From a virus (lineage: Duplodnaviria; Heunggongvirae; Uroviricota; Caudoviricetes): DNA of 64,000 nt. The position numbers and the translations under genes are program-made. The first letter of the stretch is position 1; each line of letters opens with the position of its first letter. The notes beneath the pieces are model-generated. The model worked only from the letters and a program-made list of their open reading frames with translations. It was not told the DNA's origin and searched no databases. The stretch covers positions 67,760-131,759 of the IMG/VR virus record IMGVR_UViG_3300017722_002988; one strand, given 5' to 3'. This document shows, piece by piece, positions 20,218 through 55,280 of the stretch.

Positions 20218-21237
20218 ATGAAAGAATATAAGACTGCGGTCGTGATCATGCGAGCACAACCGCCACACATCGCCCACGTTGAGCTAATCCGTGAGGCATA
20301 TGACATCGCCGATCACGTCATTTTGATTTTTGGCAGTTCGTATCTCCCCCGATCCTACAAGAACCCATTTACTTTCGATGAGCGTAAGAGCATGATGCTC
20401 GACGCCCTCTATGATGCTGGTATGCCAGCCTTTAGCGGTTTCGAGTATCACGGTTCGCCGGACTTCAATGACAACAACGCTTGGGCAGCCAACATTCAAG
20501 AGTTGGTCGGCGACAGCGGCAAGACGGTTCTCGTCGGACACATGAAGGACAACTCGAGCTTCTATCTCGACATGTTCCCCCAATGGGATCGCTTTGACCC
20601 CGGCCTGGTTCATCCCCTGAATGCGACGGACGTGCGAGATCTCTATTTCCGCAAGGACTGCAATCTCCGTTATTTCTCAGACGTTCTGCCAACCTCTGTC
20701 ATTTCGTTCCTGCGTGCTTTCAAAGCAACCGAGGAATATCAGCAGGTCATCCGCGAGCGCGAACATATCGAAATGTATCGTCGCCAGTATGAACATCTCC
20801 CATACGCTCCAGTCTTCGTGACGGTTGACAACGTCATTTTCCAATGCGGTCACATCCTGATGGTCAAGCGTCGCTCGGAACCGGGCAAAGGGCTCTGGGC
20901 TCTACCCGGTGGATTCCTGAACGCGGCGACCGATCATTCTCTTGAGGATGCTGCCATCCGAGAACTGAAGGAAGAGACCAAGATCAAGATCCCTGTTCCT
21001 GTTCTCAAGGGTTCCATCAAGGGCAGCAAAGTCTTTGATGCGATCAACCGCTCGGCACGTGGACGGACCATCACTCACGCCTTCCACTACGTTCTTCCTG
21101 ACGGCGAACTGCCTAAGGTTCGTGGTGCTGACGACGCTGAGAAGGCCGTGTGGATTCCGATCTCGCAAGTCAATCGTGAAGAGTGCTTTGAAGACCACTA
21201 CCTCATCATCCAACACTTCGTGGGAGCCACAAAATGA
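20218..21237 (+). CDS. natV: bifunctional NMN adenylyltransferase / Nudix hydrolase (NadM/NatV-like)
   Basis: N-terminal nucleotidyltransferase PPHIAH; C-terminal Nudix box GGFLNAATDHSLEDAAIRELKEETKI. Confidence 0.8.
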   Translation: MKEYKTAVVIMRAQPPHIAHVELIREAYDIADHVILIFGSSYLPRSYKNPFTFDERKSMMLDALYDAGMPAFSGFEYHGSPDFNDNNAWAANIQELVGDSGKTVLVGHMKDNSSFYLDMFPQWDRFDPGLVHPLNATDVRDLYFRKDCNLRYFSDVLPTSVISFLRAFKATEEYQQVIREREHIEMYRRQYEHLPYAPVFVTVDNVIFQCGHILMVKRRSEPGKGLWALPGGFLNAATDHSLEDAAIRELKEETKIKIPVPVLKGSIKGSKVFDAINRSARGRTITHAFHYVLPDGELPKVRGADDAEKAVWIPISQVNREECFEDHYLIIQHFVGATK

Positions 21238-21506
21238 GAGTCTTTGTCTGGGTAGGCTATGGTAACAGTAGCGTCTATTACGCTGAGACACAAGAAGATC
21301 TTCGCAAGATCTACAACGAGGTTCGTAACGCTCTTCGGGACTTTTATACTCCTGAAGAATTCATCGAGACCTTTGGTCCTGAGCCTGATCTTCTCAGCCA
21401 CATTCGTGAGAGAGACGTTTGCGACATGATCGAACGCTTCGGCGGCTTCGGTCAGCACGACTCATTCGAATGGGGTACCGAATTCACCAAACTGCTGGGT
21501 CGATAG
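21234..21506 (+). CDS. hypothetical protein
   Basis: Coupled ORF. Confidence 0.45.
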   Translation: MRVFVWVGYGNSSVYYAETQEDLRKIYNEVRNALRDFYTPEEFIETFGPEPDLLSHIRERDVCDMIERFGGFGQHDSFEWGTEFTKLLGR

Positions 21507-21539
21507 ACGACCTCGCTTAAACCGCAAAGGAGCTTTGCA

Positions 21540-22907
21540 ATGCTAAACGAAAACAACATCATCTTCAACTCGGATTCCTACAAGTACAGTATGTACCTCC
21601 AGTATCCGCCAGAAACGAAAACCGTCTATTCTTACATCGAGAGCCGCGGAGGCAAGTGGGATTCGACTGTTTACTTCGGCCTCCAGGCTTTCATCAAGAA
21701 GTATCTGTTGACTCCGGTCACTATGGAAGACATTGATGAAGCCGAAGCAGTTATTCTGGCACACGGTGAACCATTCAATCGTGCCGGCTGGGAATACATT
21801 GTCAACGCTCACGGAGGCCGCTTGCCGATCGTGATCCGTTCGGCTCCTGAGGGTTCTATCATCCCCGGCAAGAACGTCCTGCTGGTTATCGAGAACACCG
21901 ACCCGGAATGCTTCTGGCTGACGACCTTCCTCGAGACGGCTCTGCTTCGTGCCATTTGGTATCCGACTACGGTCGCTACAAACTCTTATGAGTCCAAGAA
22001 GGAGATCTTGTCCTACCTCGAGAAGACCGGTGATCCTGAATCGATCGGCTTCAAGCTGCACGACTTTGGTGCACGTGGTGTGTCTTCCAAGGAATCTGCC
22101 GGCCTCGGCGGCATGGCTCACCTTGTGAACTTCAACGGCACCGACACTGTGATGGGTCTTGTCTACGCTCGCAACTTCTACGGTGCCGATATGGCCGGCT
22201 TCTCCATCCCTGCTGCCGAGCACAGCACCGTCACGTCGTGGGGCAAGGAGAACGAAGTTCTGCCTTATCGGAACATGCTGAAGCAGTTTGCTCGTGAGGG
22301 AACGGTTGTGGCGGTTGTTTCGGACAGCTATGACATCTTCAATGCTTGCGAGCTTTGGGGAACCGAACTGAAGCAAGAGGTGATTGACTCGGGTGCAACT
22401 GTCGTCATCCGTCCGGACTCCGGCAATCCTCCTGAGGTTGTTCTGTCGTGCGTTCAGATCTTGGACAAGAACTTTGGACACACGCTCAACGCGAAGGGCT
22501 ACAAAGTCCTGAACAACGTGCGTGTCATCCAGGGTGACGGCATCGACAAGCAGATGATCCGTGCCATCCTCTACACTCTGACTCTGGCCGGCTACTCGGC
22601 TGATAACGTTGCCTTCGGTCAAGGTGGAGCCCTCTTGCAGATGGTCAACCGTGACGACCTGGCTTTCGCCATGAAGTGCTCGGCCATTCAAATCGGTGAC
22701 CGTTGGGTTGAGGTTTTCAAAGACCCGATCACTGACCAGGGTAAGAAATCTAAGAGAGGTCGTGTTACCCTCTATCAAGAGAAGGATGGGACCTTCCACT
22801 CCGGCGTCGAGGATTGGCAAACGCCGGCCCTTGATGAGGTCTACCGAGACGGGGTTCTCGTCAAGGAAACCACCTGGGATGAGGTCACTGCTCGGGCAAG
22901 AAAATAA
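21540..22907 (+). CDS. nadV: nicotinamide phosphoribosyltransferase (NAMPT/NadV)
   Basis: 455 aa; NAMPT-family similarity (YSIPAAEHST, GDGID); paired with natV as in KVP40-type phages. Confidence 0.85.
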   Translation: MLNENNIIFNSDSYKYSMYLQYPPETKTVYSYIESRGGKWDSTVYFGLQAFIKKYLLTPVTMEDIDEAEAVILAHGEPFNRAGWEYIVNAHGGRLPIVIRSAPEGSIIPGKNVLLVIENTDPECFWLTTFLETALLRAIWYPTTVATNSYESKKEILSYLEKTGDPESIGFKLHDFGARGVSSKESAGLGGMAHLVNFNGTDTVMGLVYARNFYGADMAGFSIPAAEHSTVTSWGKENEVLPYRNMLKQFAREGTVVAVVSDSYDIFNACELWGTELKQEVIDSGATVVIRPDSGNPPEVVLSCVQILDKNFGHTLNAKGYKVLNNVRVIQGDGIDKQMIRAILYTLTLAGYSADNVAFGQGGALLQMVNRDDLAFAMKCSAIQIGDRWVEVFKDPITDQGKKSKRGRVTLYQEKDGTFHSGVEDWQTPALDEVYRDGVLVKETTWDEVTARARK

Positions 22908-30195: not shown

Positions 30196-30267
30196 CCAAA
30201 CATAGCTCATTGGTAGAGCAATCGCATTGAACGCGATAGGCTGTGGGTTCGATCCCCACTGTTTATT
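30196..30267 (+). tRNA. tRNA with anticodon TGA (type I body); acceptor pairs only partially
   Basis: Canonical D-arm AGCTCATTGGTAGAGCA, arm ATCGC-ATTGAAC-GCGAT and T-arm GTGGGTTCGATCCCCAC. Confidence 0.5.
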
Positions 30268-33919: not shown

Positions 33920-34801
33920 ATGCTACTCCACACTCTAGAAAAGGACAAGTTGATCTCGCCGCCTCGTTGGCTGCCAGACAACACCGCCTATCTGACCGCC
34001 ATGGGCTCTGTTGCTTATGGCGTCAGCGGCGACATGTCCGACGTGGACATCTACGGATTCGCTATGCCTCCTAAGGATATGGTGTTCCCACATCTGGCCG
34101 GCCATATCCCTGGTTTCGGTCCTGCACCTCCGAAGTTCGAGTGCTGGGAGCAACACCACGTTCAGGATAAGAGCGGTAAGAAGGAATACGATTTCCAAGT
34201 CTTCTCCATAGTTCGGTTCTTCCACCTTCTGGTCGAGAACAACCCGAACATGACTGACTCGCTCTTCACTCCGGATCGTTGCGTTCTGCATCAGACTCGA
34301 GTGGCTCAGCTGGTCCGTGAGAACCGGAAGCTGTTCCTGCATAAGGGTGCCTACCACAAGTTCCGTGGGTACGCCTATCAGCAACTCAAGAAGGTTCAGG
34401 CAAAGACGCCTTCCAATCCGAAGCGTCAAGCTCTGGTCGATGCCTATGGCTACGACACCAAGTTCGCCTACCACATCGTTCGCCTAGCGCTCGAGTGCGA
34501 GGAGATCTTGACTCAGGGTAATCTGACTCTGGACGCGAACGTGGCGGTTCTGAAGGCTGTCCGTGAAGGACAGTGGACTTTGGAGCGGCTTGAGCAGTGG
34601 TTCGAAGGTAAGGAACTGCAACTCGAGCAGGCCAAGATGGACTCTAAGCTTCCAGAAGGTCCGAACTATGACGTGATCAAAGTGCTGCTCTTGCAGTGCC
34701 TGGAACAACACTACGGCGATCTGTCCAAGGCCGTTGCCAAGGATAACGGTGGCCAAAATGTCATCAACGAGGTCCAGGCTGTTCTGGATAGATATAGGTA
34801 G
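33920..34801 (+). CDS. Pol-beta-superfamily nucleotidyltransferase
   Basis: GSVAYGVSGDMSDVDIYG is a GS...D(x)D nucleotidyltransferase motif. Confidence 0.6.
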   Translation: MLLHTLEKDKLISPPRWLPDNTAYLTAMGSVAYGVSGDMSDVDIYGFAMPPKDMVFPHLAGHIPGFGPAPPKFECWEQHHVQDKSGKKEYDFQVFSIVRFFHLLVENNPNMTDSLFTPDRCVLHQTRVAQLVRENRKLFLHKGAYHKFRGYAYQQLKKVQAKTPSNPKRQALVDAYGYDTKFAYHIVRLALECEEILTQGNLTLDANVAVLKAVREGQWTLERLEQWFEGKELQLEQAKMDSKLPEGPNYDVIKVLLLQCLEQHYGDLSKAVAKDNGGQNVINEVQAVLDRYR

Positions 34802-35288: not shown

Positions 35289-35453
35289 ACGTGAGATGTT
35301 CGAACGGTCATTCCAACGGCCCTGCAACTTTATGGATCTAGGTCCATCGGAGCAGTGGGAGATCGATAAGAGTCTCGGCATTCTCGATTGGGAAGGAACG
35401 GGTCTTAACGAAGAGGACCTTAAGAGGTTCAACGCTCACTACCGCAAATAAGC

Positions 35454-35492
35454 TGTGTACATAATATCCCGGTGCTGTATATTGGGATTATG
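35454..35492 (+). promoter_or_regulatory. phage promoter motif
   Basis: GTGTACATAATA, then TGTATATTGGGATTATGAG. Confidence 0.5.
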
Positions 35493-35702
35493 AGCAATCA
35501 ATCCTGCACCCACTTCGTCGGCTTCAAAGGCGAAGAGTTTCATCGGGCGATCGCCGTGTTCGGCAAGCCTGATTTCATCCATCGTCAGAATGACGGCCGT
35601 TGCCGTTCGATGATCATGGATGAGGACGTGGCTGTTTATGCAAACGGGGCCGAAGTGCCCCACTCGAGCGTTTTTTCGTTCGATGATAGCTCTGTGATGT
35701 AA
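35490..35702 (+). CDS. hypothetical protein
   Basis: ATG within the extended -10 region (MSNQSCTHF). Confidence 0.4.
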   Translation: MSNQSCTHFVGFKGEEFHRAIAVFGKPDFIHRQNDGRCRSMIMDEDVAVYANGAEVPHSSVFSFDDSSVM

Positions 35703-35729
35703 TTAATCTCGGAGCCTAGTCGCGCCGAG

Positions 35730-35737
35730 TATAAATA
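35730..35737 (+). promoter_or_regulatory. T4-type late promoter box (TATAAATA) 14 nt upstream of a tRNA cluster
   Basis: Exact TATAAATA immediately 5' of tRNA-Asn. Confidence 0.4.
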
Positions 35738-35751
35738 AACCACAAGTTCAT

Positions 35752-35825
35752 TCCTAACGGTCCCTCTCGGTGAGGGAACGACACTGTTAATGTCGACGCG
35801 TCAGGTTCGATCCCTGAGTTAGGAG
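35752..35825 (+). tRNA. tRNA-Asn(GTT)
   Basis: Perfect acceptor TCCTAAC/GTTAGGA; arm CGACA-CTGTTAA-TGTCG; T-arm TCAGGTTCGATCCCTGA. Confidence 0.7.
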
Positions 35826-35834
35826 CCAATTCAT

Positions 35835-35906
35835 TCTTCAGTAGCTCAATGGTAGAGCTTCCGATTGTTAATCGGACGGTTGTTGGTTCGAGTCCAGCCT
35901 GGAGAG
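35835..35906 (+). tRNA. tRNA-Asn(GTT), second copy
   Basis: D-arm GCTCAATGGTAGAGC; arm TCCGA-TTGTTAA-TCGGA. Confidence 0.65.
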
Positions 35907-35910
35907 CCAC

Positions 35911-35981
35911 GCGGGTATGATGTAGTGGTAGCCTGTGACCTTGCCAAGGTCAACGTCCGGATTCGATTTCCGGTACCCGCT
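35911..35981 (+). tRNA. tRNA-Gly(GCC)
   Basis: Perfect acceptor GCGGGTA/TACCCGC; arm TGACC-TTGCCAA-GGTCA; T-arm CCGGATTCGATTTCCGG. Confidence 0.7.
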
Positions 35982-35990
35982 CCAATAGAC

Positions 35991-36057
35991 TAACCTCGTC
36001 TTTACAGGGGTCGTAGACGTCAGCGTTAGGCGTGACCGGGGGAGAGTCTCCACCAAA
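35991..36057 (+). ncRNA. degenerate tRNA-like unit ending in CCACCA, followed by an AAATTTC spacer
   Basis: GTCGTAGACGTCAGCG... GGAGAGTCTCC-ACCA; same architecture as the 29086-29242 units. Confidence 0.35.
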
Positions 36058-36062
36058 TTTCT

Positions 36063-36135
36063 GCGGGTATGGTGTTTAACGGTAGCACAGCAGCCTTCCA
36101 AGCTAAAAGTCCCGATTCGAATTCGGGTATCCGCT
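36063..36135 (+). tRNA. tRNA-Gly(TCC)
   Basis: Same acceptor as the Gly(GCC) gene; CTTCCAA loop; T-arm CCCGATTCGAATTCGGG. Confidence 0.6.
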
Positions 36136-36154
36136 CCAAAAATCTAAGAATCCT

Positions 36155-36240
36155 GGGTGGGTTCAATAAGGCTCGGAAGTCCGGGCAACCGGCTGTAAAC
36201 CGGTTCCGTAAGGCATGGGGAGCGTTACCTCACCCACCTA
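36155..36240 (+). tRNA. tRNA-Tyr(GTA)-like, type II, with the AGCGTTA T-loop and a 6-bp D-stem
   Basis: Acceptor GGGTGGG/CCCACCT; arm ACCGG-CTGTAAA-CCGGT; T-arm TGGGG-AGCGTTA-CCTCA; CCA. Confidence 0.45.
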
Positions 36241-36248
36241 CCATTTAT

Positions 36249-36337
36249 GCGGCTGTCGTCTAAGACAGGACACCCTGATGAACCTCCCCGAGGTCATTCC
36301 GGCGCGGGGAGATCAGGTATCAAATCCTGCGGCTGCA
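36249..36337 (+). ncRNA. degenerate tRNA-Glu-like unit with encoded CCA
   Basis: Acceptor GCGGCTG/CGGCTGC with G:U pairs; Glu-type D-arm TCGTCTAAGACAGGACACC; hairpins in place of the anticodon arm; T-arm-like CAGGTATCAAATCCTG. Confidence 0.4.
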
Positions 36338-36352
36338 CCATTTTGAGATGAT

Positions 36353-36527
36353 CATGTCTGATAAGAAGATTGAAAAGAAGCGTCGTAAACTGCAAGAGCA
36401 GATCGATCTACTTGAAAATCAAGTTCGCAGTTCCCTCGGTAAGAAGGACAGCAGAACTGATGAGATCAATGTTCCAGATCTGATGAGAAAAATTGCGGAT
36501 TATCGAGCACAGATAACCCGTCTATAA
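36353..36527 (+). CDS. small coiled-coil protein (58 aa, not listed in the ORF track)
   Basis: ATG-initiated ORF between tRNA-like units (MSDKKIEKKRRKLQEQIDLLENQ...). Confidence 0.3.
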
Positions 36528-36532
36528 GTTAC

Positions 36533-36606
36533 GCCTCTGTACTCCAACTGGCAGAGAGAGCAGGTCGAGAGCCTGTCCAGTGTCGGTTCGAATCCGACTA
36601 GGGGCA
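36533..36606 (+). tRNA. type-I tRNA with Leu anticodon GAG (A73)
   Basis: Acceptor GCCTCTG/TAGGGGC; arm GCAGG-TCGAGAG-CCTGT; T-arm GTCGGTTCGAATCCGAC; short variable loop. Confidence 0.5.
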
Positions 36607-36616
36607 CCAAAGTTTG

Positions 36617-36687
36617 TGCAGGTAGGATGCGGTATCCCACTCGGGCTCATAACCCTTGCTACGTCGGTTCGACTCCGACACCTGCTT
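36617..36687 (+). tRNA. initiator-like tRNA-fMet(CAT)
   Basis: Unpaired 1:72; three G:C pairs closing the anticodon stem (GGG/CCC); CTCATAA loop. Confidence 0.5.
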
Positions 36688-36695
36688 CATATAAT

Positions 36696-36769
36696 GCCTT
36701 TGTACCCCAACTGGTAGAGGGAGCGGTCTTAGAAACCGTACAGTGTCAGTTCGAATCTGACCAGAGGCA
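36696..36769 (+). tRNA. type-I tRNA with Leu anticodon TAG (A73)
   Basis: Paralog of 36533; arm GCGGT-CTTAGAA-ACCGT. Confidence 0.5.
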
Positions 36770-36787
36770 CCAATCAAGGAGACCAGC

Positions 36788-36937
36788 TTGAACCATAAGC
36801 GTGGAAAGCCTAAGAACGCCAGGAGCGGTTGCCTGATGTGCAAACCCTGGAAAGTCAATGGCTGCTGCATGGATAAGCACTCCGATGCTATAAGGAAAGA
36901 GTCTGCTAAGGATCAGATTCGTTTCATCTGCGAATAA
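36788..36937 (+). CDS. Cys-rich small protein (TTG start, 49 aa, not listed in the ORF track)
   Basis: AAGGAG sits 7 nt upstream of the TTG; CLMC...GCC...FIC. Confidence 0.25.
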   Translation: MNHKRGKPKNARSGCLMCKPWKVNGCCMDKHSDAIRKESAKDQIRFICE

Positions 36938-36938
36938 C

Positions 36939-37013
36939 GCCCCTGTAGTCCAACTGGCAGGAGACAGCGGTTTCAAAAGCCGCACAGTGTCGGTTCGAAT
37001 CCGACTGGGGGCA
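36939..37013 (+). tRNA. type-I tRNA with Leu anticodon CAA (A73)
   Basis: Cleanest member of the family: GCGGT-TTCAAAA-GCCGC arm, 5-nt variable loop, canonical T-arm. Confidence 0.55.
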
Positions 37014-37021
37014 CCAATAAC

Positions 37022-37096
37022 GCCTGAGTACTCCAACGGAAGAGAGCCCGGTCTTAAAAACCGTGGAACGTGTGGGTTCGAATCTCACCTTAGGCA
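37022..37096 (+). tRNA. type-I tRNA with Leu anticodon TAA (A73)
   Basis: Paralog; CTTAAAA loop. Confidence 0.5.
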
Positions 37097-37106
37097 CCAT
37101 TCTACA

Positions 37107-37185
37107 GCCCGCCTCCATGGGCAAATTGGCAAAGTCGCTGTGTTCAGATCGCAGAGTTTTCCCGGTTCGACTCCGGGTGGGGGCA
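37107..37185 (+). tRNA. tRNA-like with Leu anticodon CAG (A73) and an extended D-region
   Basis: Arm CTGTG-TTCAGAT-CGCAG; T-arm CCCGGTTCGACTCCGGG. Confidence 0.4.
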
Positions 37186-37240
37186 CATCGGCGTCAAATG
37201 CATAAATAGAGTAGAATCTATTTGCACGCGAGGCCCGCTA

Positions 37241-37864
37241 ATGTTGTACACCATCTATCGCGTGACTCATCTAGAATCCGGGAAGTGCTACATTGGAAAA
37301 CATCAGACTAGGGACCCTAATGATGGATACATGGGTTCCGGTCAACTTATAAGACGTGCCGTCAAGAAGCATGGATTGAGCGCCTTCAAGAAAGAGGTTC
37401 TTCATGTCTTCGAAACGGAGTCCGAGATGAACGCTAAGGAGGCCGAAATGGTCACCGAGGAGTTTTGTGCTAGAGACGACACGTATAACGTGTGCCCAGG
37501 AGGGCAAGGTGGTTGGGGCTATGTGAATCGTACAATTTTAAGTCCAGCTGAGAGATATAAGAGAAGCTCAAAAGGCGGTAAAGCTGCTTTTGAAAAGTTT
37601 CCTGATTCTTTCAAGAAAGCGTGTATCGCCGGCGGAAAGTCCACCGGAGCTAAGAACGGAAGCAAAAATCAAGCATCAACACTTACTGAATCTGCGAGAC
37701 TAAAGCGAAAAGCGACCATGAAAGCCAATAGGCATATGTGTGGAGCTAAGAATAGTCAGTTTGGAACTTGCTGGATTACAGACGGGGTCTCTTCTAAAAA
37801 GATCCAAAAATCAGAAATTGAAAACCATCCTGGCTGGGAAAGAGGCCGGGTTATTAGAGGATGA
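37241..37864 (+). CDS. GIY-YIG homing endonuclease (Seg-like)
   Basis: IYRVTHLESGKCYIGKH...YMGSG GIY-YIG motif. Confidence 0.8.
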   Translation: MLYTIYRVTHLESGKCYIGKHQTRDPNDGYMGSGQLIRRAVKKHGLSAFKKEVLHVFETESEMNAKEAEMVTEEFCARDDTYNVCPGGQGGWGYVNRTILSPAERYKRSSKGGKAAFEKFPDSFKKACIAGGKSTGAKNGSKNQASTLTESARLKRKATMKANRHMCGAKNSQFGTCWITDGVSSKKIQKSEIENHPGWERGRVIRG

Positions 37865-38055
37865 ATAACATGAGCGATAAGAACACCTTCGTAGTTCGTT
37901 TTGAAGATATGCCAGAACGACAGATTGAAGCCGATGGCTTTCAAATCTATGACCGTGGAGATCTTGTGTTCTTCAATCAAGGTGAGAATCAATATGACCA
38001 AGACTGCTCGGCAGCTTTTGCCGGCGGCAAATGGATCTCAGTCAACAAGGTTTAA
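37861..38055 (+). CDS. hypothetical protein
   Basis: Coupled ORF. Confidence 0.45.
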   Translation: MNNMSDKNTFVVRFEDMPERQIEADGFQIYDRGDLVFFNQGENQYDQDCSAAFAGGKWISVNKV

Positions 38056-38060
38056 TAAAT

Positions 38061-38129
38061 ACCCTCGGTAGCGGATCTACCACCGGGCCTCCGAAGCTTG
38101 GATGGGTGGTTCGATTCCACTCGAGGGCG
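38061..38129 (+). tRNA. tRNA-Arg(CCG)
   Basis: Arm CGGGC-CTCCGAA-GCTTG; T-arm GGTGGTTCGATTCCACT; CCA. Confidence 0.5.
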
Positions 38130-38216
38130 CCAACTAATAAATAGGACTATGATGACTTTCAACCAACGACAGCAAAGCCAAAGTTAAGCCACTGGGACAC
38201 ACCTCCCAGTGAATGC

Positions 38217-38287
38217 TGGGGACTGGTGTAATGGTAGCATAACACGCTTTGAACGTGTTGGTTCAGGTTCGAGCCCTGGGTCCCCAT
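38217..38287 (+). tRNA. tRNA-Gln(TTG)
   Basis: U1:A72 pair; perfect acceptor TGGGGAC/GTCCCCA; arm ACACG-CTTTGAA-CGTGT. Confidence 0.75.
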
Positions 38288-38294
38288 CCAATTT

Positions 38295-38366
38295 GTCTTC
38301 GTAGTTTAACGGATAGAACGAGAGTTTCCTAAACTTTTGGCGGGGGTTCGATTCCCTCCGAAGACG
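38295..38366 (+). tRNA. tRNA-Arg(CCT)
   Basis: Perfect acceptor GTCTTCG/CGAAGAC; TTCCTAA loop; T-arm GGGGGTTCGATTCCCTC. Confidence 0.65.
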
Positions 38367-38387
38367 CCATAATGAGAAAAGTGATAC

Positions 38388-38996
38388 ATGCTTGAAACCA
38401 TTTGCGAAGTCCTCTCTGAGGCGTATAAGAGAAACTGGATCACGGCAAGAGACGGCAATGCCTCCTTGCGATTCGCAAATGACCACAAGATCTACGTAAC
38501 TCCATCTGCAGTCAGGAAGCAAACCATGCAGCCTGGTATGTTCAAGATCATTGACGCCAGGTCAGGTGCAGAGCTTGAAGGCTGTCCTATCCAAGTCGGC
38601 CTGCGTCCGACCGGAGAGCTACCTCTCCACTATGGCCTTCAGAAGGTCATCGACGAAGACGTTAGAGTCGTCCTCCATCTTCATCCCACTTACACAATCG
38701 CCGCCATGTTGGCTGGCATCGACCTGAGCAAGCTAGTGAATGAGTTCCCAGAGCTTGGTCGCTATACGTCCGTGGCACCTACGGTGCCTGACGTTCCTCC
38801 GATCAGCCAAGAGCTGGCCGATGCGTGTATGGAAAACCTTGTGCTCGATGGTAAAGGTTCCATCCGCTATAACATAGTTGGCATTGATCGGCATGGTGTT
38901 GTAGCCATTGCCAACACCCCGTGGAGAGCCATGGAACATATCGAACGTCTCGAACATATCTGCAAGATCGCTCTTGCATCTAGAACCACTTTTTAG
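38388..38996 (+). CDS. class II aldolase / adducin-family protein
   Basis: NW...GNASLR...YVTPSA and HLHP (zinc ligands), typical of the fuculose-phosphate aldolase family. Confidence 0.6.
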   Translation: MLETICEVLSEAYKRNWITARDGNASLRFANDHKIYVTPSAVRKQTMQPGMFKIIDARSGAELEGCPIQVGLRPTGELPLHYGLQKVIDEDVRVVLHLHPTYTIAAMLAGIDLSKLVNEFPELGRYTSVAPTVPDVPPISQELADACMENLVLDGKGSIRYNIVGIDRHGVVAIANTPWRAMEHIERLEHICKIALASRTTF

Positions 38997-41853: not shown

Positions 41854-41925
41854 GCACCTATGGCCTAATGGTTAAGGCAGGGGTCTCTAAAACCTTGAAT
41901 CCGGGTTCGAGCCCCGGTAGGTGCA
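41854..41925 (+). tRNA. tRNA with anticodon CTA (amber-reading, suppressor-type)
   Basis: Perfect acceptor GCACCTA/TAGGTGC; D-arm GCCTAATGGTTAAGGC; arm GGGGT-CTCTAAA-ACCTT; T-arm CCGGGTTCGAGCCCCGG; CCA. Confidence 0.6.
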
Positions 41926-42181
41926 CCAAGTTTCAGTTTTCCCCTCAAGAGGGGAGATGGAGACCACAAAGGAGAGTGCTATCATGGACTAATCTGACTC
42001 TGTAGAGATAGAATGATTTTTGATAGATAAAGTTTAATTGGTAAGAACACCGTCCTCGAGACGAAAAGGAAAAAGATATGCATTCGTAGAATCGCTGTCA
42101 ACATGACCCTCCGTGATGTAAAGATCACATTACACTAAGACCACTTATGGTAACACCATCTTTACATTACGGAGACGTCAA

Positions 42182-45826: not shown

Positions 45827-46052
45827 GCTGACTGACGAGGAAGAAAAGTTCCTCCATATCATGGCACGTAAGATCTACCCGACCGCTTGGGGTGCTGGTT
45901 CTTTTTATACAGAGAACCATCAAGCTACAGCGGTCGGGCATGTTCGTGCTGCTTTCTTGGATGCCTGCAAAGGATCCAATGTGAAAATCACTCGAAAGAG
46001 AAAGACTAAACCATGTCGCCCATCTACGAAACCATCAAAAGAGACAGCCTAA
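45810..46052 (+). CDS. hypothetical protein
   Basis: Coupled ORF. Confidence 0.4.
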   Translation: MSLDIRLTDEEEKFLHIMARKIYPTAWGAGSFYTENHQATAVGHVRAAFLDACKGSNVKITRKRKTKPCRPSTKPSKETA

Positions 46053-46453
46053 CCGCCCGCAAAGCCGGCGACAAGGCTACAGCATCCCTTCTTGTTACTC
46101 TAGCGTCTGAGATTCAGGCAGCAGGTAGATCTGTTGAAGAGCGTGAGAACCCGTCGAACGATGTGGCTATCGCTACGATTAAGAAGTTCATTAAGAACGC
46201 TTACATCACTGTGGAAGCTAATAAAAACAGCAGAGACAGGGAGACGGCTGCAATGCGAGAAGTTGAGATTTTGGAATCGTATCTGCCTAAGCAGCTAACC
46301 GAAACCGAAATCAAGGTGATCATCGCTGGGCTCAAGGCTAAGCCTGGCGAAGCCAACATCATGGAACCCACCATGGGTAACATTATGGGGTATTTCAAGA
46401 CGATGTATCCTGGGCGATACGACGGAGCTTTGGTAGCCAAGCACGCCAGATAA
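46013..46453 (+). CDS. GatB/YqeY-domain protein
   Basis: EILESYLPKQLTETE...MGNIMGYF...GRYDGALVAKHAR matches the YqeY pattern. Confidence 0.65.
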   Translation: MSPIYETIKRDSLTARKAGDKATASLLVTLASEIQAAGRSVEERENPSNDVAIATIKKFIKNAYITVEANKNSRDRETAAMREVEILESYLPKQLTETEIKVIIAGLKAKPGEANIMEPTMGNIMGYFKTMYPGRYDGALVAKHAR

Positions 46454-47297: not shown

Positions 47298-47373
47298 GCG
47301 TCCGTATCGGAACCGCCTTCTAAGCGGTAGTACCGTAAGTGGAACGATGGGGGTTCGAGTCCCTCCGGGCGCG
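47298..47373 (+). tRNA. tRNA-like (anticodon TCT) lacking a D-arm, with a long variable region
   Basis: Acceptor GCGTCCG/CGGGCGC; arm ACCGC-CTTCTAA-GCGGT; T-arm GGGGGTTCGAGTCCCTC; only about 5 nt between the acceptor and anticodon stems. Confidence 0.4.
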
Positions 47374-47383
47374 CCATATTTCT

Positions 47384-47468
47384 GGACGAGTTGGACAATT
47401 GGTTGGTCCGCGGGACTCTTAATCCCGTTCGCGAAAGCGGCTTGTGGGTTCGAACCCCACCTCGTTCA
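47384..47468 (+). tRNA. type-II-shaped tRNA with Lys anticodon CTT
   Basis: Acceptor GGACGAG/CTCGTTC; D-arm GGACAATTGGTTGGTCC; perfect arm CGGGA-CTCTTAA-TCCCG; 16-nt variable arm with a GAAA tetraloop. Confidence 0.5.
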
Positions 47469-47472
47469 CCAT

Positions 47473-47542
47473 CCAGCCGTAGTGTAGGTTTGCACGGCAC
47501 CCATTTGGGGGTGTTAGACTAGGTTCAACTCCTAGCGGCCGG
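47473..47542 (+). tRNA. tRNA-like with a 6-nt anticodon loop
   Basis: Acceptor CCAGCCG/CGGCCGG; CACCC-ATTTGG-GGGTG; T-arm CTAGGTTCAACTCCTAG; CCA. Confidence 0.35.
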
Positions 47543-47741
47543 ACCAAGACCCGTCCTAAGGATTCTGTGGGACGTTAAATCACTAGGAATCGGGCTTTCT
47601 CTCCTTTGCCTTAAGAAAGGAGACTGGAATCAGCCTAGAAGAGCTGGTCGAAGTCCCGTAATGTGGCACCGCCTCCGTCCGGGCGACCCTCGCAAAGGGT
47701 TAAGAGATCGGCATGGTAACCGAAATCAGGCTTCCAATTTA

Positions 47742-47825
47742 GGACGCGTCACCTCAGCAGCGAGAGGCCGGGCCTTTTAAGCCCACGGAGAAATCCCATC
47801 GGGGGTGCGAGTCCCTCCGCGTTCA
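47742..47825 (+). tRNA. type-II-shaped tRNA with Lys anticodon TTT
   Basis: Acceptor GGACGCG/CGCGTTC; CTTTTAA loop; variable arm GGAGAAATCC (GAAA tetraloop); T-arm GGGGG-TGCGAGT-CCCTC. Confidence 0.45.
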
Positions 47826-47969
47826 CCAAATTTGATGCGGACCACCTCGGACGTGGTTGCCAAGTCTGGCCAGACGGTAGAAGCCCTCGGCCGAGGGCGG
47901 ACACTTATAAAGTGATTTGGGTAGGTGGTTCGAATCCGCCCACTTTGATGGCAACGCATCAACTCATTC

Positions 47970-48042
47970 GGGTTCATAGCTCAATGGCGTAGAGCAGCGG
48001 GTTTTTACCCCGTAGATCTCGGTTCAAATCCGAGTGGACCCT
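47970..48042 (+). tRNA. tRNA-Lys(TTT), canonical type I
   Basis: Acceptor GGGTTCA/TGGACCC; D-arm GCTCAATGGCGTAGAGC; arm GCGGG-TTTTTAC-CCCGT. Confidence 0.75.
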
Positions 48043-48082
48043 CCAGATAAATAAGACAGAACCCTCAAAGCAGAGAAGCAAA

Positions 48083-50384: not shown

Positions 50385-50422
50385 GGTGTACTTAATTACC
50401 AATCGTTATAGTATGAGAATAT
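50385..50422 (+). promoter_or_regulatory. phage promoter motif
   Basis: GTGTACTTAATTACC, then TATAGTATGAGAATATGAC. Confidence 0.5.
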
Positions 50423-51479
50423 GACAATGATCAAATTTCCTTCCATCGAGCAGCTGCGGACGGTCGTAAAGAACGTCCAGCACCAGTCTCGATTTGCCGG
50501 TGTCGATGACACCGGGGAGCCCATCTTTGACAGCACTCGGCCCATCCCGACCCTTCGGTTTGTTGGCACGGTGAAGCTACATGGCACAAACGCCGGTATC
50601 GTTCTGGATCGTACCGGAACTGACTTCATCTACCAGTCCCGTGAGCGTGTTCTGACTCTTGAAGCTGACAACGCTGGTTTCATGGCCCATATGCAGGCTA
50701 ATCAGGACAGCGTCGATACGCTGTTCGCAACTGTCATGCTGCAGATTGAAGATCTCGACTCAGTCAAGTTCATCTGCATCTACGGCGAATGGTGTGGCGG
50801 AAACATTCAAAAAGGGGTCGGCATCTCCGGTCTTCCCAAGATGTTTGTGGTGTTCGGTATCAAGGTCATCTACGAGACTGACGATGACGGCTCCGAAGGT
50901 GTGTGGATTCCGGTTCAAAACATCCAATACGAAGACAAGGATGCTGGCATCTACAATGTCCATCAGTTCGGTTCTTGGACGATCGACATCGACTTCAACC
51001 ATCCCCAACTGTCTCAGCCCAAGCTCATCGAGCTGACCGAGATGGTTGAGGCTGAGTGCCCTGCCGGCAAGTTCTTCGGAAACACTGGTATCGGCGAGGG
51101 CATCGTCTGGCACTGTGAAGAGCCTGGCTTTACCTCTAGCCGCCTGTGGTTCAAGGTGAAGGGCGAGAAGCACTCTGTCTCCAAGGTCAAGACGCTGGCT
51201 CCGGTCGATGTTGAGGCCTACAAGAAGCAGCAGGACTTCATCGACTCTGTCGTGACCGAAGCTCGGCTGGAACAAGGCATTCAGAATCTCATCAACGAAC
51301 AGCAGAAGCCGTTCGAGATGGCGTCCATGGGTGACTTCATTCGTTGGGTCTTCAATGACATCGTCAAGGAAGAGACTGACACAATCGAGGCCAACGGCTT
51401 TGACTCTAAGAAGCTCGGTGGTCCTATTGCCAATAAGGCACGGCCCTGGTTCATTCAGCGGCTGAACAGCGAAGGTTAA
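50421..51479 (+). CDS. rnlB: RNA ligase 2 (T4 Rnl2 family)
   Basis: Motif I KLHGTN (T4 Rnl2 has KIHGTN); IYGEWCGGNIQKGVGI resembles VFGEFAGPGIQKNVDY; FVVFGI resembles FYVFDI; 352 aa. Confidence 0.75.
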   Translation: MTMIKFPSIEQLRTVVKNVQHQSRFAGVDDTGEPIFDSTRPIPTLRFVGTVKLHGTNAGIVLDRTGTDFIYQSRERVLTLEADNAGFMAHMQANQDSVDTLFATVMLQIEDLDSVKFICIYGEWCGGNIQKGVGISGLPKMFVVFGIKVIYETDDDGSEGVWIPVQNIQYEDKDAGIYNVHQFGSWTIDIDFNHPQLSQPKLIELTEMVEAECPAGKFFGNTGIGEGIVWHCEEPGFTSSRLWFKVKGEKHSVSKVKTLAPVDVEAYKKQQDFIDSVVTEARLEQGIQNLINEQQKPFEMASMGDFIRWVFNDIVKEETDTIEANGFDSKKLGGPIANKARPWFIQRLNSEG

Positions 51480-52724: not shown

Positions 52725-55280
52725 ATGACAGAACCCTATTTTTACACAGCAGTAGATCAGGCCAAGAATGGTGACCTTCTCGTTAGAGGTTATCAGAATG
52801 GCAAGCGCTTCATGCGCAAAGTTCAATACCGGCCACATCTCTTCGTTCCCACCAAAGGCGAGTCTAAGTACCGCACTCTTGATGGGAAGCCAGTCAAGCG
52901 GATGGACTTTGAGTCCATCAAGGAAGCCAAGACTTTCATCTATGACTATAAGGAAGTTCAGAACTTCGAGATATTCGGCCAAGACAAGTTTGCCTACTCG
53001 TACATCAATGATGAGTTTTACGGCGAGATCAACTTTGACCCTCAGCTAATCTCCGTGGTCGGTCTCGACATTGAGACCAAGACCGTGTCCGATGATGGCA
53101 AGAAGGGTTTCCCAGACATCGCCAAGGCTTCTCACCCGATCACGGCTATCACCATGAAGAAGTTCGGTGGCCCGACCTATATGTTCGGTCTGAAGGATTA
53201 TCGGCCGAAGGATAAGACTGTCACGTATTTCAAATGTGTGGACGAAGCATCCCTGCTGGCTGCCTTCATTGAACTGTGGGATGGTGAGGAGATGACTCCT
53301 GACATTCTCACCGGCTGGAACATCGAGTTCTTCGACATTCCCTATCTGGTCAACCGGATCACTAAGATCTTGGGTCCGACCATGGCCAAAATGCTGAGCC
53401 CGTGGCGTATCCTTGAAGAATATGAGGTTCTGGCTCGTGGCCGTACGCAAATGGCATTCCGCCCTGTCGGTGTGTCTTGTATGGACTACCTTCCCCTCTA
53501 CAAGAAGTTCAGCTTTAAGAACCAGGAGTCCTTTACCCTCGAGTACATCTCACAGGTGGAACTCAAGGAAGGCAAGACTGATACGTCAAACTATAAAGGT
53601 CTGGATGACCTGTACGAAAGAAACCCGACTCTCTACTATGACTACAACCTTCGAGATGTCCTTCTCATCGAACGACTGGAAGCCAAGCTCGGATTCATTG
53701 CGATGGTCGAGGCCTTCGCCTATGATGCCAAGGTGAACTACAACGACACTTTGGCAACCGTGAAGCCGTGGGACGTCATCATCTCGAACTTCCTTCTCGG
53801 CCGTAACATCGTGGTCCCGCAGTTCCGTCCGAAGCACCAAGAGAAGACGATCGTCGGCGGCTATGTCAAAGAACCCGTGCTTGGTATGTCCAAATGGGTC
53901 GTGTCTTTCGACTTGAATTCCCTGTATCCGTCTCTCATCATGGCTTACAACATCGGCCCTGACACCTTCATCGAGCAACTCGAAGAGGAAGATGATCTAG
54001 AGATGACCAATGCTAAGGTCGTCGAGATCATGAACGGTAAGCTGAACCAAAAGTATCAAGACGCACTTAGAGAAGACAACGTCTGCATCACAGCCAACAT
54101 GGCTCTGTATTCCAAGAAGAAGATCGGCTTTATGGCCGAACTCATGCAGCAGAAGTACGATCAGCGTAAGATCTATCAGGCTAAGCTCAAGGAAGCCAAG
54201 AAGGAATATGCCAAGACGAAGGATCCGGCTCAGGCTATTCTCATCAGTCGGTATCATGCGCTTCAGTTGTCCAAGAAGATCCAGATCAACGCCTTCTATG
54301 GTTCGATCGCCAACAAATATTGCCGTTGGTTCTCCCTGATCAACGCTGAGGCCATTACCACGACCGGCCAGCTGACCATCCAGTGGGTTCAGAAGGACAT
54401 CAACAAGTACCTGAACAAGGTGCTCGAGACTGAGGGTCTCGACTTCGTCATTGCTTCTGATACTGACTCCGCTTACATCACACTTGACAAGTTCGTTGAG
54501 AAGTTCTGTCAGAGTATGGATGACGGAGCTATCACTGACATGTTGGATAAGGTCTGCAAGACCAAGCTCCAAGACGTGATCAACAAGTCGTTCGAGCAAC
54601 AAGGCATCTATACTAACGCCTTTGACGCCACCAAGCTAGTCATGAAGCGTGAGTCCATTGCCTCCAAAGGTATCTGGGTTGCCAAGAAGCGCTACATCCT
54701 TTACGTCTGGGATAATGAGGGCATCCGTTATGAAGAGCCTGAGATCAAGATCACTGGTCTCGAGGTTGTGAAGTCCTCAACCCCGGGCGTATGCAAGAAG
54801 GCTATGAAGGAATGCTTTAAGCTGATCTTGACCAGGCCAGAGGATGAGCTCCACAGTTACATCGATGACTTCTATTCTCGGTTCATGGAACTACCATTCG
54901 AAGAAGTTGCTTCGCCACGTGGTATCTCTGACATGGACAAGTGGGTAGATCCTGCCACTATCTTCAAGAGTGGAACGCCGATGCATGTGAAGGGTGCCAT
55001 CATGTGGAACCATGCAATCTCTAAGAAAGGTCTTGATGATCGGCTGCCGACTCTTTATAACGGCGACAAGATCAAATATTCCTATCTGAAGAAACCCAAT
55101 CCCCTTAACGTAAACGTAATTTCTACCCCTGGTAATCTGCCATCAGAGCTGGGTCTGGACTCATACATAGATCGGGATATACAATTCCAAAAGACATTCA
55201 TCGATCCAATGAAATTGGTCACAGATGTCATCGGATGGACGCCCCAAAAAACGTATACACTCGATTCATTTTTTAGCTAG
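52725..55280 (+). CDS. 43: DNA polymerase gp43 (family B)
   Basis: Exonuclease motif DIETK; SLYPSLI; motif B KIQINAFYGS; motif C IASDTDSAYI; 851 aa. Confidence 0.95.
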   Translation: MTEPYFYTAVDQAKNGDLLVRGYQNGKRFMRKVQYRPHLFVPTKGESKYRTLDGKPVKRMDFESIKEAKTFIYDYKEVQNFEIFGQDKFAYSYINDEFYGEINFDPQLISVVGLDIETKTVSDDGKKGFPDIAKASHPITAITMKKFGGPTYMFGLKDYRPKDKTVTYFKCVDEASLLAAFIELWDGEEMTPDILTGWNIEFFDIPYLVNRITKILGPTMAKMLSPWRILEEYEVLARGRTQMAFRPVGVSCMDYLPLYKKFSFKNQESFTLEYISQVELKEGKTDTSNYKGLDDLYERNPTLYYDYNLRDVLLIERLEAKLGFIAMVEAFAYDAKVNYNDTLATVKPWDVIISNFLLGRNIVVPQFRPKHQEKTIVGGYVKEPVLGMSKWVVSFDLNSLYPSLIMAYNIGPDTFIEQLEEEDDLEMTNAKVVEIMNGKLNQKYQDALREDNVCITANMALYSKKKIGFMAELMQQKYDQRKIYQAKLKEAKKEYAKTKDPAQAILISRYHALQLSKKIQINAFYGSIANKYCRWFSLINAEAITTTGQLTIQWVQKDINKYLNKVLETEGLDFVIASDTDSAYITLDKFVEKFCQSMDDGAITDMLDKVCKTKLQDVINKSFEQQGIYTNAFDATKLVMKRESIASKGIWVAKKRYILYVWDNEGIRYEEPEIKITGLEVVKSSTPGVCKKAMKECFKLILTRPEDELHSYIDDFYSRFMELPFEEVASPRGISDMDKWVDPATIFKSGTPMHVKGAIMWNHAISKKGLDDRLPTLYNGDKIKYSYLKKPNPLNVNVISTPGNLPSELGLDSYIDRDIQFQKTFIDPMKLVTDVIGWTPQKTYTLDSFFS

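Follow-up and report, generated by a model that had tools for sequence, protein, structure and literature searches.

What are five leucine anticodons doing in tRNAs that have no long variable arm? This question is raised by a 64,000-nt stretch of the IMG/VR virus record IMGVR_UViG_3300017722_002988 (hereafter the window), which by its gene content belongs to a T4-like phage and which contains five short-armed (type I) tRNA genes with the anticodons GAG, UAG, CAA, UAA and CAG (Table 1). Textbooks describe tRNA-Leu as long-armed everywhere except in animal mitochondria. A 2023 review states the same (PMC9976931). The initial annotation saw two options: a complete set of leucine isoacceptors that had been remodelled to type I geometry, or tRNAs whose identity and anticodon had been decoupled for recoding or mistranslation. 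Our analysis indicates that the five genes are very probably genuine type I leucine isoacceptors of an ordinary kind, predicted to be charged by the leucyl-tRNA synthetase (LeuRS) of the host, and in which the loss of the arm is presumably tolerated. Judged from sequence, four of them are members of a type I tRNA-Leu family that is widespread in phages and actinobacteria, and the fifth is a member of a second type I lineage.

The five genes are found by ARAGORN as well as by Rfam, and both support the anticodons and the discriminator A73 (five out of five) that had been read from the letters. Rfam model RF00005 aligns all of them end to end with 39.9 to 56.5 bits (gathering score 29). In this covariance-model check the anticodons stay exactly where ARAGORN puts them, at positions 34 to 36 of a 7-nt loop; a shift of the anticodons, the result that would have spoken against the annotation, was not seen. 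The anticodon loops (UCGAGAG, CUUAGAA, UUCAAAA, CUUAAAA and UUCAGAU) agree with those given before. The same is true for the range of 5 to 7 nt reported for the variable loops, which measure 5, 5, 5, 7 and 6 nt, contain no extra stem and leave a canonical cloverleaf. Small deviations occur in the D loop, which is one nucleotide longer in tRNA-Leu(CAA) and one shorter in tRNA-Leu(UAA). ARAGORN finds no class II tRNA-Leu in the window. The chance that five random anticodons all fall among the six leucine anticodons is about (6/64)^5, or ~7e-6, and a chance origin of the set is not plausible.

The description of the genes as five sibling paralogues needs more correction. With the anticodon masked, the first four are 66-81% identical to each other and can indeed be called siblings, and their starts (36533, 36696, 36939 and 37022) stand as annotated. 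The fifth starts at 37111 instead of 37107. Because it shows only 45-59% masked identity to the other four, it is by this measure a different lineage and not a close sibling. The second lineage is marked by U8-G9, the D region GGC-AAAUUGGCAAA-GUC and its own variable loop (AGUUUU). The D-arm and T-arm strings said to be common to all genes are exact in only some of them. The T arms differ by compensatory changes (GTCGG/CCGAC in two genes, GTCAG/CTGAC, GTGGG/CTCAC and CCCGG/CCGGG).

To follow the family outside the window we used a 21-nt string, CAGTGTCGGTTCGAATCCGAC, which covers the end of the variable loop plus the T arm and is exact in two of the window genes. At least 119 IMG/VR contigs contain this string, and all 117 tRNAs carrying it are 73-78 nt long and bear a leucine anticodon (taa, tag, caa, cag, gag or aag). 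A hidden Markov model (HMM) built from the five window genes with masked anticodons was then scored against 1104 phage tRNAs; at a cut-off of 30 bits, 149 of the 150 matches carry leucine anticodons. A blastn search with tRNA-Leu(UAG) matched 131 GenBank phage records. The 40 that were listed are annotated as tRNA-Leu or unannotated at the matching position, and among these listed matches are Felix O1-like coliphages, Salmonella phages, Lactobacillus phage LP65 and its relatives, phages of Streptomyces, Rhodococcus and Bacillus, and one Synechococcus phage. The fifth gene has its own relatives: gene 81 of the mycobacteriophage Myrna (annotated as tRNA-Leu) matches its entire length with 84% identity, and a tRNA-Leu(CAA) of viral locus L281 is 77% identical. 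Another blastn match to this gene, the tRNA-Gln(CTG) of Snenia-type mycobacteriophages, was rejected as a relative with an altered anticodon on account of its Gln-type acceptor stem and G73. In at least two further viral loci, L106 and L135, all five anticodons are again present as a complete tandem set of type I genes. Fifteen viral loci contain both type I and class II tRNA-Leu.

In bacterial genomes the same 21-mer is present in at least 120 stretches, mostly of Actinomycetota (Streptomyces, Nocardioides, Gordonia, Microbacterium), with a minority from Acidobacteriota, Kofleriaceae and gammaproteobacterial metagenome-assembled genomes. In 97 of 120 bacterial loci the tRNA is the only one within 8 kb, and so these family members look like ordinary chromosomal genes. 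Bacterial tRNAs with the 21-mer comprise 108 type I tRNA-Leu, mostly CAA or UAA, and nine class II tRNA-Leu that share the T arm and the ...CAGU junction with them. Since the family is this widespread, the proposal of a complete leucine set remodelled to type I is correct as to the complete set and fails as to a local remodelling. Our literature search found no paper that describes phage type I tRNA-Leu as a class or discusses their geometry.

How does this compare to other isotypes? As a control we took 119 IMG/VR loci, picked by a D-arm motif that is typical of non-leucine tRNAs and holding 585 tRNAs. The leucine tRNAs in this sample consist of 36 class II and 13 type I genes (27%; 13/49), the latter in 10 of the 32 loci that have leucine tRNAs at all. 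For serine the ratio of class II to type I is 33:1 and for tyrosine 12:3; phage tRNA-Ser and tRNA-Tyr thus keep their arm. Seryl- and tyrosyl-tRNA synthetases (SerRS and TyrRS) use the long variable arm. The loss is concentrated in leucine, which is alone among the class II isotypes in having a synthetase that makes no use of the arm.

The next question is whether the bodies of these tRNAs, apart from their anticodons, are those of leucine tRNAs. LeuRS, SerRS and the alanyl enzyme (AlaRS) are the only synthetases that ignore the anticodon; the other synthetases read it. The window genes have neither an arm of the serine type nor G73, and G3-U70, on which alanine identity would depend, is found in none of them and in none of 111 unique family members. 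Therefore leucine is left by elimination. There is also positive evidence. In E. coli leucine identity resides in A73, A15-U48, G18G19, A20a and the tertiary contacts between D loop and T loop; it is independent of the anticodon and of the long arm, and arm-truncated tRNAs stay active (review, PMC9976931). All five window genes have kept U8, A14, A15 together with U48, G18G19 and A20a. Segment alignment shows that they share with class II tRNA-Leu the D loop A14 A15 Y N G18 G19 Y A20a G, A73 and a variable region with G-U48 at its end, as well as the architecture of the D arm (a 3-bp stem with the 13/22 position unpaired). The main type I lineage consistently has A9, C13 and A26 where class II has G9, G/A13 and G26. 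The arms of the class II leucine genes in our comparison loci measure 13-15 nt.

The D-loop motif AA-N1-3-GG-N-AG in combination with U48 is present in 146 of 190 type I and 19 of 25 class II leucine tRNAs, against 18 of 848 non-leucine tRNAs (0/50 Ser, 1/34 Tyr and 17/764 other class I). We also reversed the search, using an HMM made from class II tRNA-Leu only, after trimming the arm to 5 nt and masking the anticodon. Type I leucine tRNAs reach a median of 28.8 bits with this model, and the medians of other isotypes (those represented by 40 or more test tRNAs) do not exceed 12.5 bits. Four window genes obtain 25.4 (GAG), 30.1 (UAG), 31.1 (CAA) and 22.7 bits (UAA), which places them in the top 0.4-4% relative to non-leucine tRNAs. 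The bodies consequently point to a leucine identity that matches the anticodon.

Conservation of the fold was evaluated on the 111 unique family members. Fifteen of the 17 pairs in acceptor, anticodon and T stem are paired in 97-100% of the members, with up to six pair types each, and the two end pairs of the anticodon stem in 87% and 90%. A73 and U8 are invariant (111/111). In one respect the window genes differ from most relatives: they start the acceptor stem with G1-C72, whereas 72 of the 111 have a G1-U72 wobble. With such covariation the family is under structural selection. This bears on the idea that the genes are decaying or non-translational tRNA-like elements, such as pseudogenes, processing signals or targets of homing endonucleases. 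One may point here to the missing CCA of the fifth gene, the C33 of the GAG gene, the modest Rfam scores and an island full of homing endonucleases. Yet no stem is broken, compensatory changes are seen in the window genes as well as among the relatives, the nucleotides of the tertiary interactions are conserved, CCA is encoded in four out of five genes, and five non-redundant anticodons exactly cover the leucine codons that the phage uses. We therefore regard decay as very unlikely.

Within the family anticodons change often, yet they stay inside the leucine set (the 149 of 150 mentioned above). For example, the closest relatives of the window CAA gene (86-88% identical) bear UAG anticodons in other phages, and the GAG gene is about equally close to the window CAA gene and to a GAG gene elsewhere. 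Switching of this kind is expected if the charging enzyme ignores the anticodon and selection removes those switches that would put leucine at non-leucine codons. Decoupled identities would not give rise to such a pattern, and a confinement to leucine anticodons is sensible only if the amino acid is leucine.

Decoupling can also be judged from the genetic code of the phage. Codon usage was counted on 82 crudely called open reading frames (ORFs) of this one window, which makes it a crude test. All six leucine codons are used (3.8-24.3 per thousand) and leucine makes up 8.4% of the residues. The stop codons are TAA in 31, TGA in 27 and TAG in 24 ORFs, a normal rate for TAG. A more direct comparison is offered by the DNA polymerase (gp43), aligned with its homologues from phiM12 and S-PRM1. 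Both homologues have leucine at 32 columns, and at 23 of these (72%) the window has a leucine codon, close to the overall conservation of 70%. Conversely, 30 leucine codons of the window lie at columns where the homologues agree; 23 fall on leucine and seven on mostly hydrophobic residues (I, M, F, V and one P). The reading frame of gp43 is intact under the standard code. Overall the code looks standard, with no sign of recoding in these alignments, and recoding of stop or sense codons was rejected on codon usage and the gp43 comparison. The window does encode a tRNA with the anticodon CUA (41854-41928; A73, CCA), which is of the amber-suppressor type and labelled Pyl by ARAGORN. Despite this tRNA, TAG terminates 24 of the 82 crude ORFs and no obvious reassignment of TAG is seen in the window.

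These results leave little room for charging with another amino acid, recoding or deliberate mistranslation of leucine codons. The geometry is atypical for a bacterial tRNA-Leu, the E. coli enzyme failed on one type I tRNA-Leu (PMC6614811), and the same window holds irregular tRNAs (the CUA suppressor type and class-II-shaped tRNAs with lysine anticodons), all of which might be quoted in favour of decoupled identities. Nevertheless, the bodies have the leucine identity features and score as leucine without their anticodon (the fifth weakly), the marks of alanine and serine are absent, and any synthetase that reads the anticodon would meet a leucine one. Together with the family anticodons and the polymerase alignment this makes decoupling, as put forward in the initial annotation, extremely improbable. 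Cases of switched identity do exist in Streptomyces tRNAProX and in nematode class II tRNAs that carry Gly or Ile anticodons and are charged with leucine. The window tRNAs resemble those in having a geometry that is unexpected for the anticodon; the difference is that in the switched tRNAs body and anticodon disagree, whereas here both are leucine.

The closest known system is Streptomyces coelicolor, where a type I tRNALeu(CAA) is leucylated by the single LeuRS of the organism (Fan 2019, NAR, PMC6614811). According to the same authors, this charging of a type I tRNA requires the leucine-specific domain of LeuRS. Like this tRNA, the window genes combine a short variable loop with a leucine anticodon and a canonical elbow. 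We infer its membership of the same sequence family through other Streptomyces genomes (L151 and others). The solitary type I leucine genes of Actinomycetota have the exact 21-mer and the D-arm layout in common with the window genes. They differ in being single and chromosomal, mostly CAA or UAA, and placed alongside class II leucine genes, whereas the window has all five anticodons in type I form, in tandem and in a phage. The variable loop is also short in one tRNA-Leu(TAG) of a Mycobacterium tRNA gene cluster (Behra et al. 2019, PMC6582537). This tRNA is likewise cluster-encoded and was contrasted with the normal chromosomal isoacceptor, but it concerns a single gene in a bacterial array that is mentioned in passing. 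Among cultured phages, wV8 (Felix O1-like), Myrna, Peebs, LP65 and others have annotated tRNA-Leu genes that belong to the same two type I lineages as those of the window. Three tRNA-Leu of 77-79 nt (tag, caa and taa) are present in wV8 and two of 75-76 nt in Streptomyces phage Peebs. For the three tRNA-Leu of a related phage, Sf14, leucine is reported as the top isotype of the tRNAscan-SE 2 models (PMC12482277). The stretches examined contain one to three type I leucine genes, against five in the window, and that of Myrna additionally an 83-nt tRNA-Leu. Animal mitochondrial tRNA-Leu, for instance human mt-tRNALeu(UUR), is also type I and is recognised mainly via A73 and A14; these tRNAs are described as floppy, with mismatched stems (PMC9976931). 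In contrast, the phage genes have fully paired stems and a canonical elbow (G18G19 plus UUCGAAU), and we found no evidence of common descent between the two groups.

Summarizing these observations, the following scenario would fit best. The family would have arisen from class II tRNA-Leu through loss of the variable stem-loop. In the phage, the five tRNAs would be transcribed as part of the island, and host enzymes would mature them; the fifth would require CCA addition. The host LeuRS would then leucylate them through A73 and the features of elbow and D loop, because the bacterial enzyme depends on neither anticodon nor long arm, going by E. coli data (PMC9976931) and by the leucylation of the S. 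coelicolor type I tRNA (PMC6614811). With an enzyme that is blind to the anticodon, a duplicated gene may switch anticodon freely within the leucine set, which would explain tandem arrays with all five anticodons. The five tRNAs together would read all six leucine codons, each of which the phage uses, and leucine decoding would become independent of the host tRNA supply as part of a near-complete phage tRNA set. Loss of the arm may then be a tolerated streamlining, which is the simplest reading.

Several points weigh against this scenario. Streamlining is itself something we infer. Leucylation is a prediction for these as for any other phage type I tRNA-Leu. In tRNA-Leu(GAG) the near-universal U33 is replaced by C33, which is seen in 3 of the 111 unique family members overall. 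A Kofleriaceae tRNA array (L149 1413) has the same C33 in its GAG gene (UCGAGAA), as does one other viral GAG gene. All five tRNAs have A37, including those that read CUN codons. E. coli tRNA-Leu reading CUN codons carry G37 (m1G). In the family, UAG members with A37 outnumber those with G37 by 16 to 7. The fifth gene obtains only 10.4 bits with the class II model, a score that does not discriminate, and it has no fully encoded CCA: beyond A73 (37185) only C74 is encoded. As to sampling, the main viral sample was chosen by a motif of the family itself, and only the control sample is unbiased. Finally, no leucylation of the tRNALeu(CAA) of S. coelicolor was obtained in vitro with the E. coli enzyme (PMC6614811), and acceptance by a LeuRS from outside the actinobacteria can therefore not be assumed. 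This is of direct relevance to the Felix O1-like enterobacterial phages, which carry type I tRNA-Leu despite that failure: either their tRNAs have features that restore charging, or they serve a role other than that of adaptor.

A different view is that the loss of the arm is adaptive, in that type I tRNAs would evade a factor recognising the long arm of class II tRNA-Leu. Candidates for such a factor are a nuclease or toxin of host defence, or an attack on host tRNA-Leu directed by the phage itself. T4 infection cleaves an E. coli tRNA-Leu, although our literature search gave no confirmation of this. In favour one can mention that the type I set is complete and the window free of class II tRNA-Leu, as in L106 and L135, and that the island encodes functions of RNA repair (an RNA ligase at 50421-51479 and an RlaP-type nucleotidyltransferase at 33920-34801). 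A variable arm can serve as handle for a toxin, as MenT3 uses the arm of tRNA-Ser (PMC11541572), and a cyanophage can be blocked when host tRNA-Leu(UAA) is depleted (PMC11726456). However, neither this analysis nor the literature examined turned up a nuclease or toxin that is specific for the arm of tRNA-Leu. The same family sits as solitary chromosomal genes in many Actinomycetota, where evasion is unneeded, and 15 viral loci carry both types. Moreover, neutral loss would be expected to strike just that class II isotype whose synthetase ignores the arm, as is observed. We thus consider adaptive loss unlikely. A related proposal takes the complete type I set as a counter-measure by which the phage would continue to translate while host tRNA-Leu is destroyed, modified or withheld; this too is improbable as the purpose of the set. 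Adaptive loss, in which a complete set would sustain translation when host tRNA-Leu is depleted, would add a function to the scenario given above and is compatible with it.

What do ordinary type I isoacceptors imply? Arm-less tRNA-Leu are common in phage tRNA islands and in Actinomycetota, in at least two lineages, and can form the entire leucine set of a phage. They represent a known but little-described kind of tRNA, to which the window adds an example of a complete set. For genome annotation this means that calls of short tRNA-Leu in phages are not artefacts. For studies of tRNA identity they offer a natural experiment, in which the arm is dispensable for leucine and not for serine or tyrosine, and for engineering they are candidate compact leucine scaffolds. 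Nothing points to a new genetic code or a new mechanism.

Table 1. The leucine tRNA genes and the features directly around them (positions in the window).
Feature	Position	Strand	Found by	Variable loop	Discriminator	CCA
Small ORF, 57 aa, directly upstream of the Leu cluster	36354..36527	+	no PHROG match			
tRNA-Leu(GAG), type I	36533..36609	+	ARAGORN; Rfam RF00005 39.9 bits	CCAGU	A73	encoded
Weak tRNA-like gene, CAU anticodon, between Leu genes 1 and 2, outside the Leu set	36617..36688	+	ARAGORN			
tRNA-Leu(UAG), type I	36696..36772	+	ARAGORN; Rfam 56.5 bits	ACAGU	A73	encoded
Small Cys-rich ORF, 49 aa, between Leu genes 2 and 3	36788..36937	+	no PHROG match			
tRNA-Leu(CAA), type I	36939..37016	+	ARAGORN; Rfam 50.5 bits	ACAGU	A73	encoded
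tRNA-Leu(UAA), type I	37022..37099	+	ARAGORN; Rfam 41.2 bits	GGAACGU (7 nt)	A73	encoded
tRNA-Leu(CAG), type I, second lineage	37111..37186	+	ARAGORN; Rfam 45.4 bits	AGUUUU	A73	incomplete
GIY-YIG (SegE-like) homing endonuclease, directly downstream of the Leu cluster	37241..37864	+	Pfam PF19835, E = 5.8e-07			

The cluster is part of a larger tRNA island. ARAGORN reports 38 tRNA genes between ~23.7 and 48 kb, all on the + strand, and the island thus comprises at least 38. Among them the CAU tRNA-like gene is a poor one: its acceptor stem has 6 bp, the D arm is small and CCA is missing. Its top Rfam score is just 20 bits, to tRNA-Sec (tRNA clan). Homing endonucleases of the HNH, GIY-YIG and NUMOD types are scattered through the island. 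Genes of the GIY-YIG type are typical of phage tRNA islands. The flanks hold the NAD-salvage genes NMNAT-Nudix and NAMPT (20218-22907) and a YqeY-like protein (46013-46453), in addition to the two RNA repair genes located above. Further genes of the window encode a DnaB-like helicase and a RecA/UvsX-like protein. The polymerase (family B, gp43; 52725-55280) shares only ~44% identity with its counterparts in Sinorhizobium phage phiM12 and cyanomyoviruses, too little to point to a host.

Comparisons of the locus with other phages gave little. Megablast of positions 36300-37500 against GenBank phages returned zero matches, and an exact 39-mer from the window was absent from IMG/VR, so that no near-identical phage is available there for a comparison of synteny. 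Relatives traced via the adjacent RlaP gene are at best 58% identical; only one of these loci (L014) has a type I leucine gene and another (L012) has class II, which is uninformative on the local evolution of the leucine cluster. A scan for promoters and terminators over positions 35400-38500 gave counts that are not above those of shuffled sequence.

The island contains several other irregular tRNAs. Doubtful genes are the 72-nt tRNA-Ser(UGA) at 30196-30267 and the 74-nt tRNA-Tyr(AUA) at 47874-47947 called by ARAGORN, because they have imperfect acceptor stems, short variable loops and no CCA; no tRNA-Tyr(GUA) was found in the window. Two class-II-shaped tRNAs (47384-47471 and 47742-47828) carry the lysine anticodons CUU and UUU. 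Both have a variable stem-loop with a GAAA loop, related acceptor stems (GGACGAG and GGACGCG), A73 and an encoded CCA, and they score 50.9 and 35.7 bits with Rfam. The second was missed by ARAGORN and has an odd T loop (UGCGAGU). So the same island loses an arm in leucine and gains one in lysine. A normal class I tRNA-Lys(UUU) is located at 47970-48045. The class-II-shaped lysine tRNAs have no convincing relatives in 3.5 Mb of comparison loci (nhmmer) or in GenBank phages (blastn).

Two more genes lie close to these. The tRNA-like gene at 47298-47376, missed by ARAGORN and scoring 37.3 bits with Rfam, has the loop CUUCUAA (UCU, Arg), G73 and an encoded CCA, in combination with nearly no D arm and a variable region of ~20 nt. 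Its relatives in two other viral loci (L356 5491-5564 and L284 6412-6486) have kept the unusual parts UAUCGGAAC ... GUAGNACCGUAA, so this gene is a recurring odd form. The tRNA at 47473-47546 shows an apparent 8-nt anticodon loop (CAUUUGGG) with A73 and CCA; ARAGORN labels it '???' and Rfam gives it 37.7 bits.

Long arms in unexpected isotypes are also observed outside the window. The first 145 comparison loci, nearly all from IMG/VR, include class-II-shaped tRNAs with Cys, Thr, Asn, Trp and Met anticodons and GAAA-type arms. They further contain 25 tRNA-Ile(UAU) genes of 88-94 nt with a long variable arm (L030 5475-5568, L047 1177-1270, L048 8921-9011, L032 10145-10234, L034 12097-12184 and others). 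In four of the five examples displayed, the loop of this arm contains AGAUUAG, mostly as CAGAUUAG.

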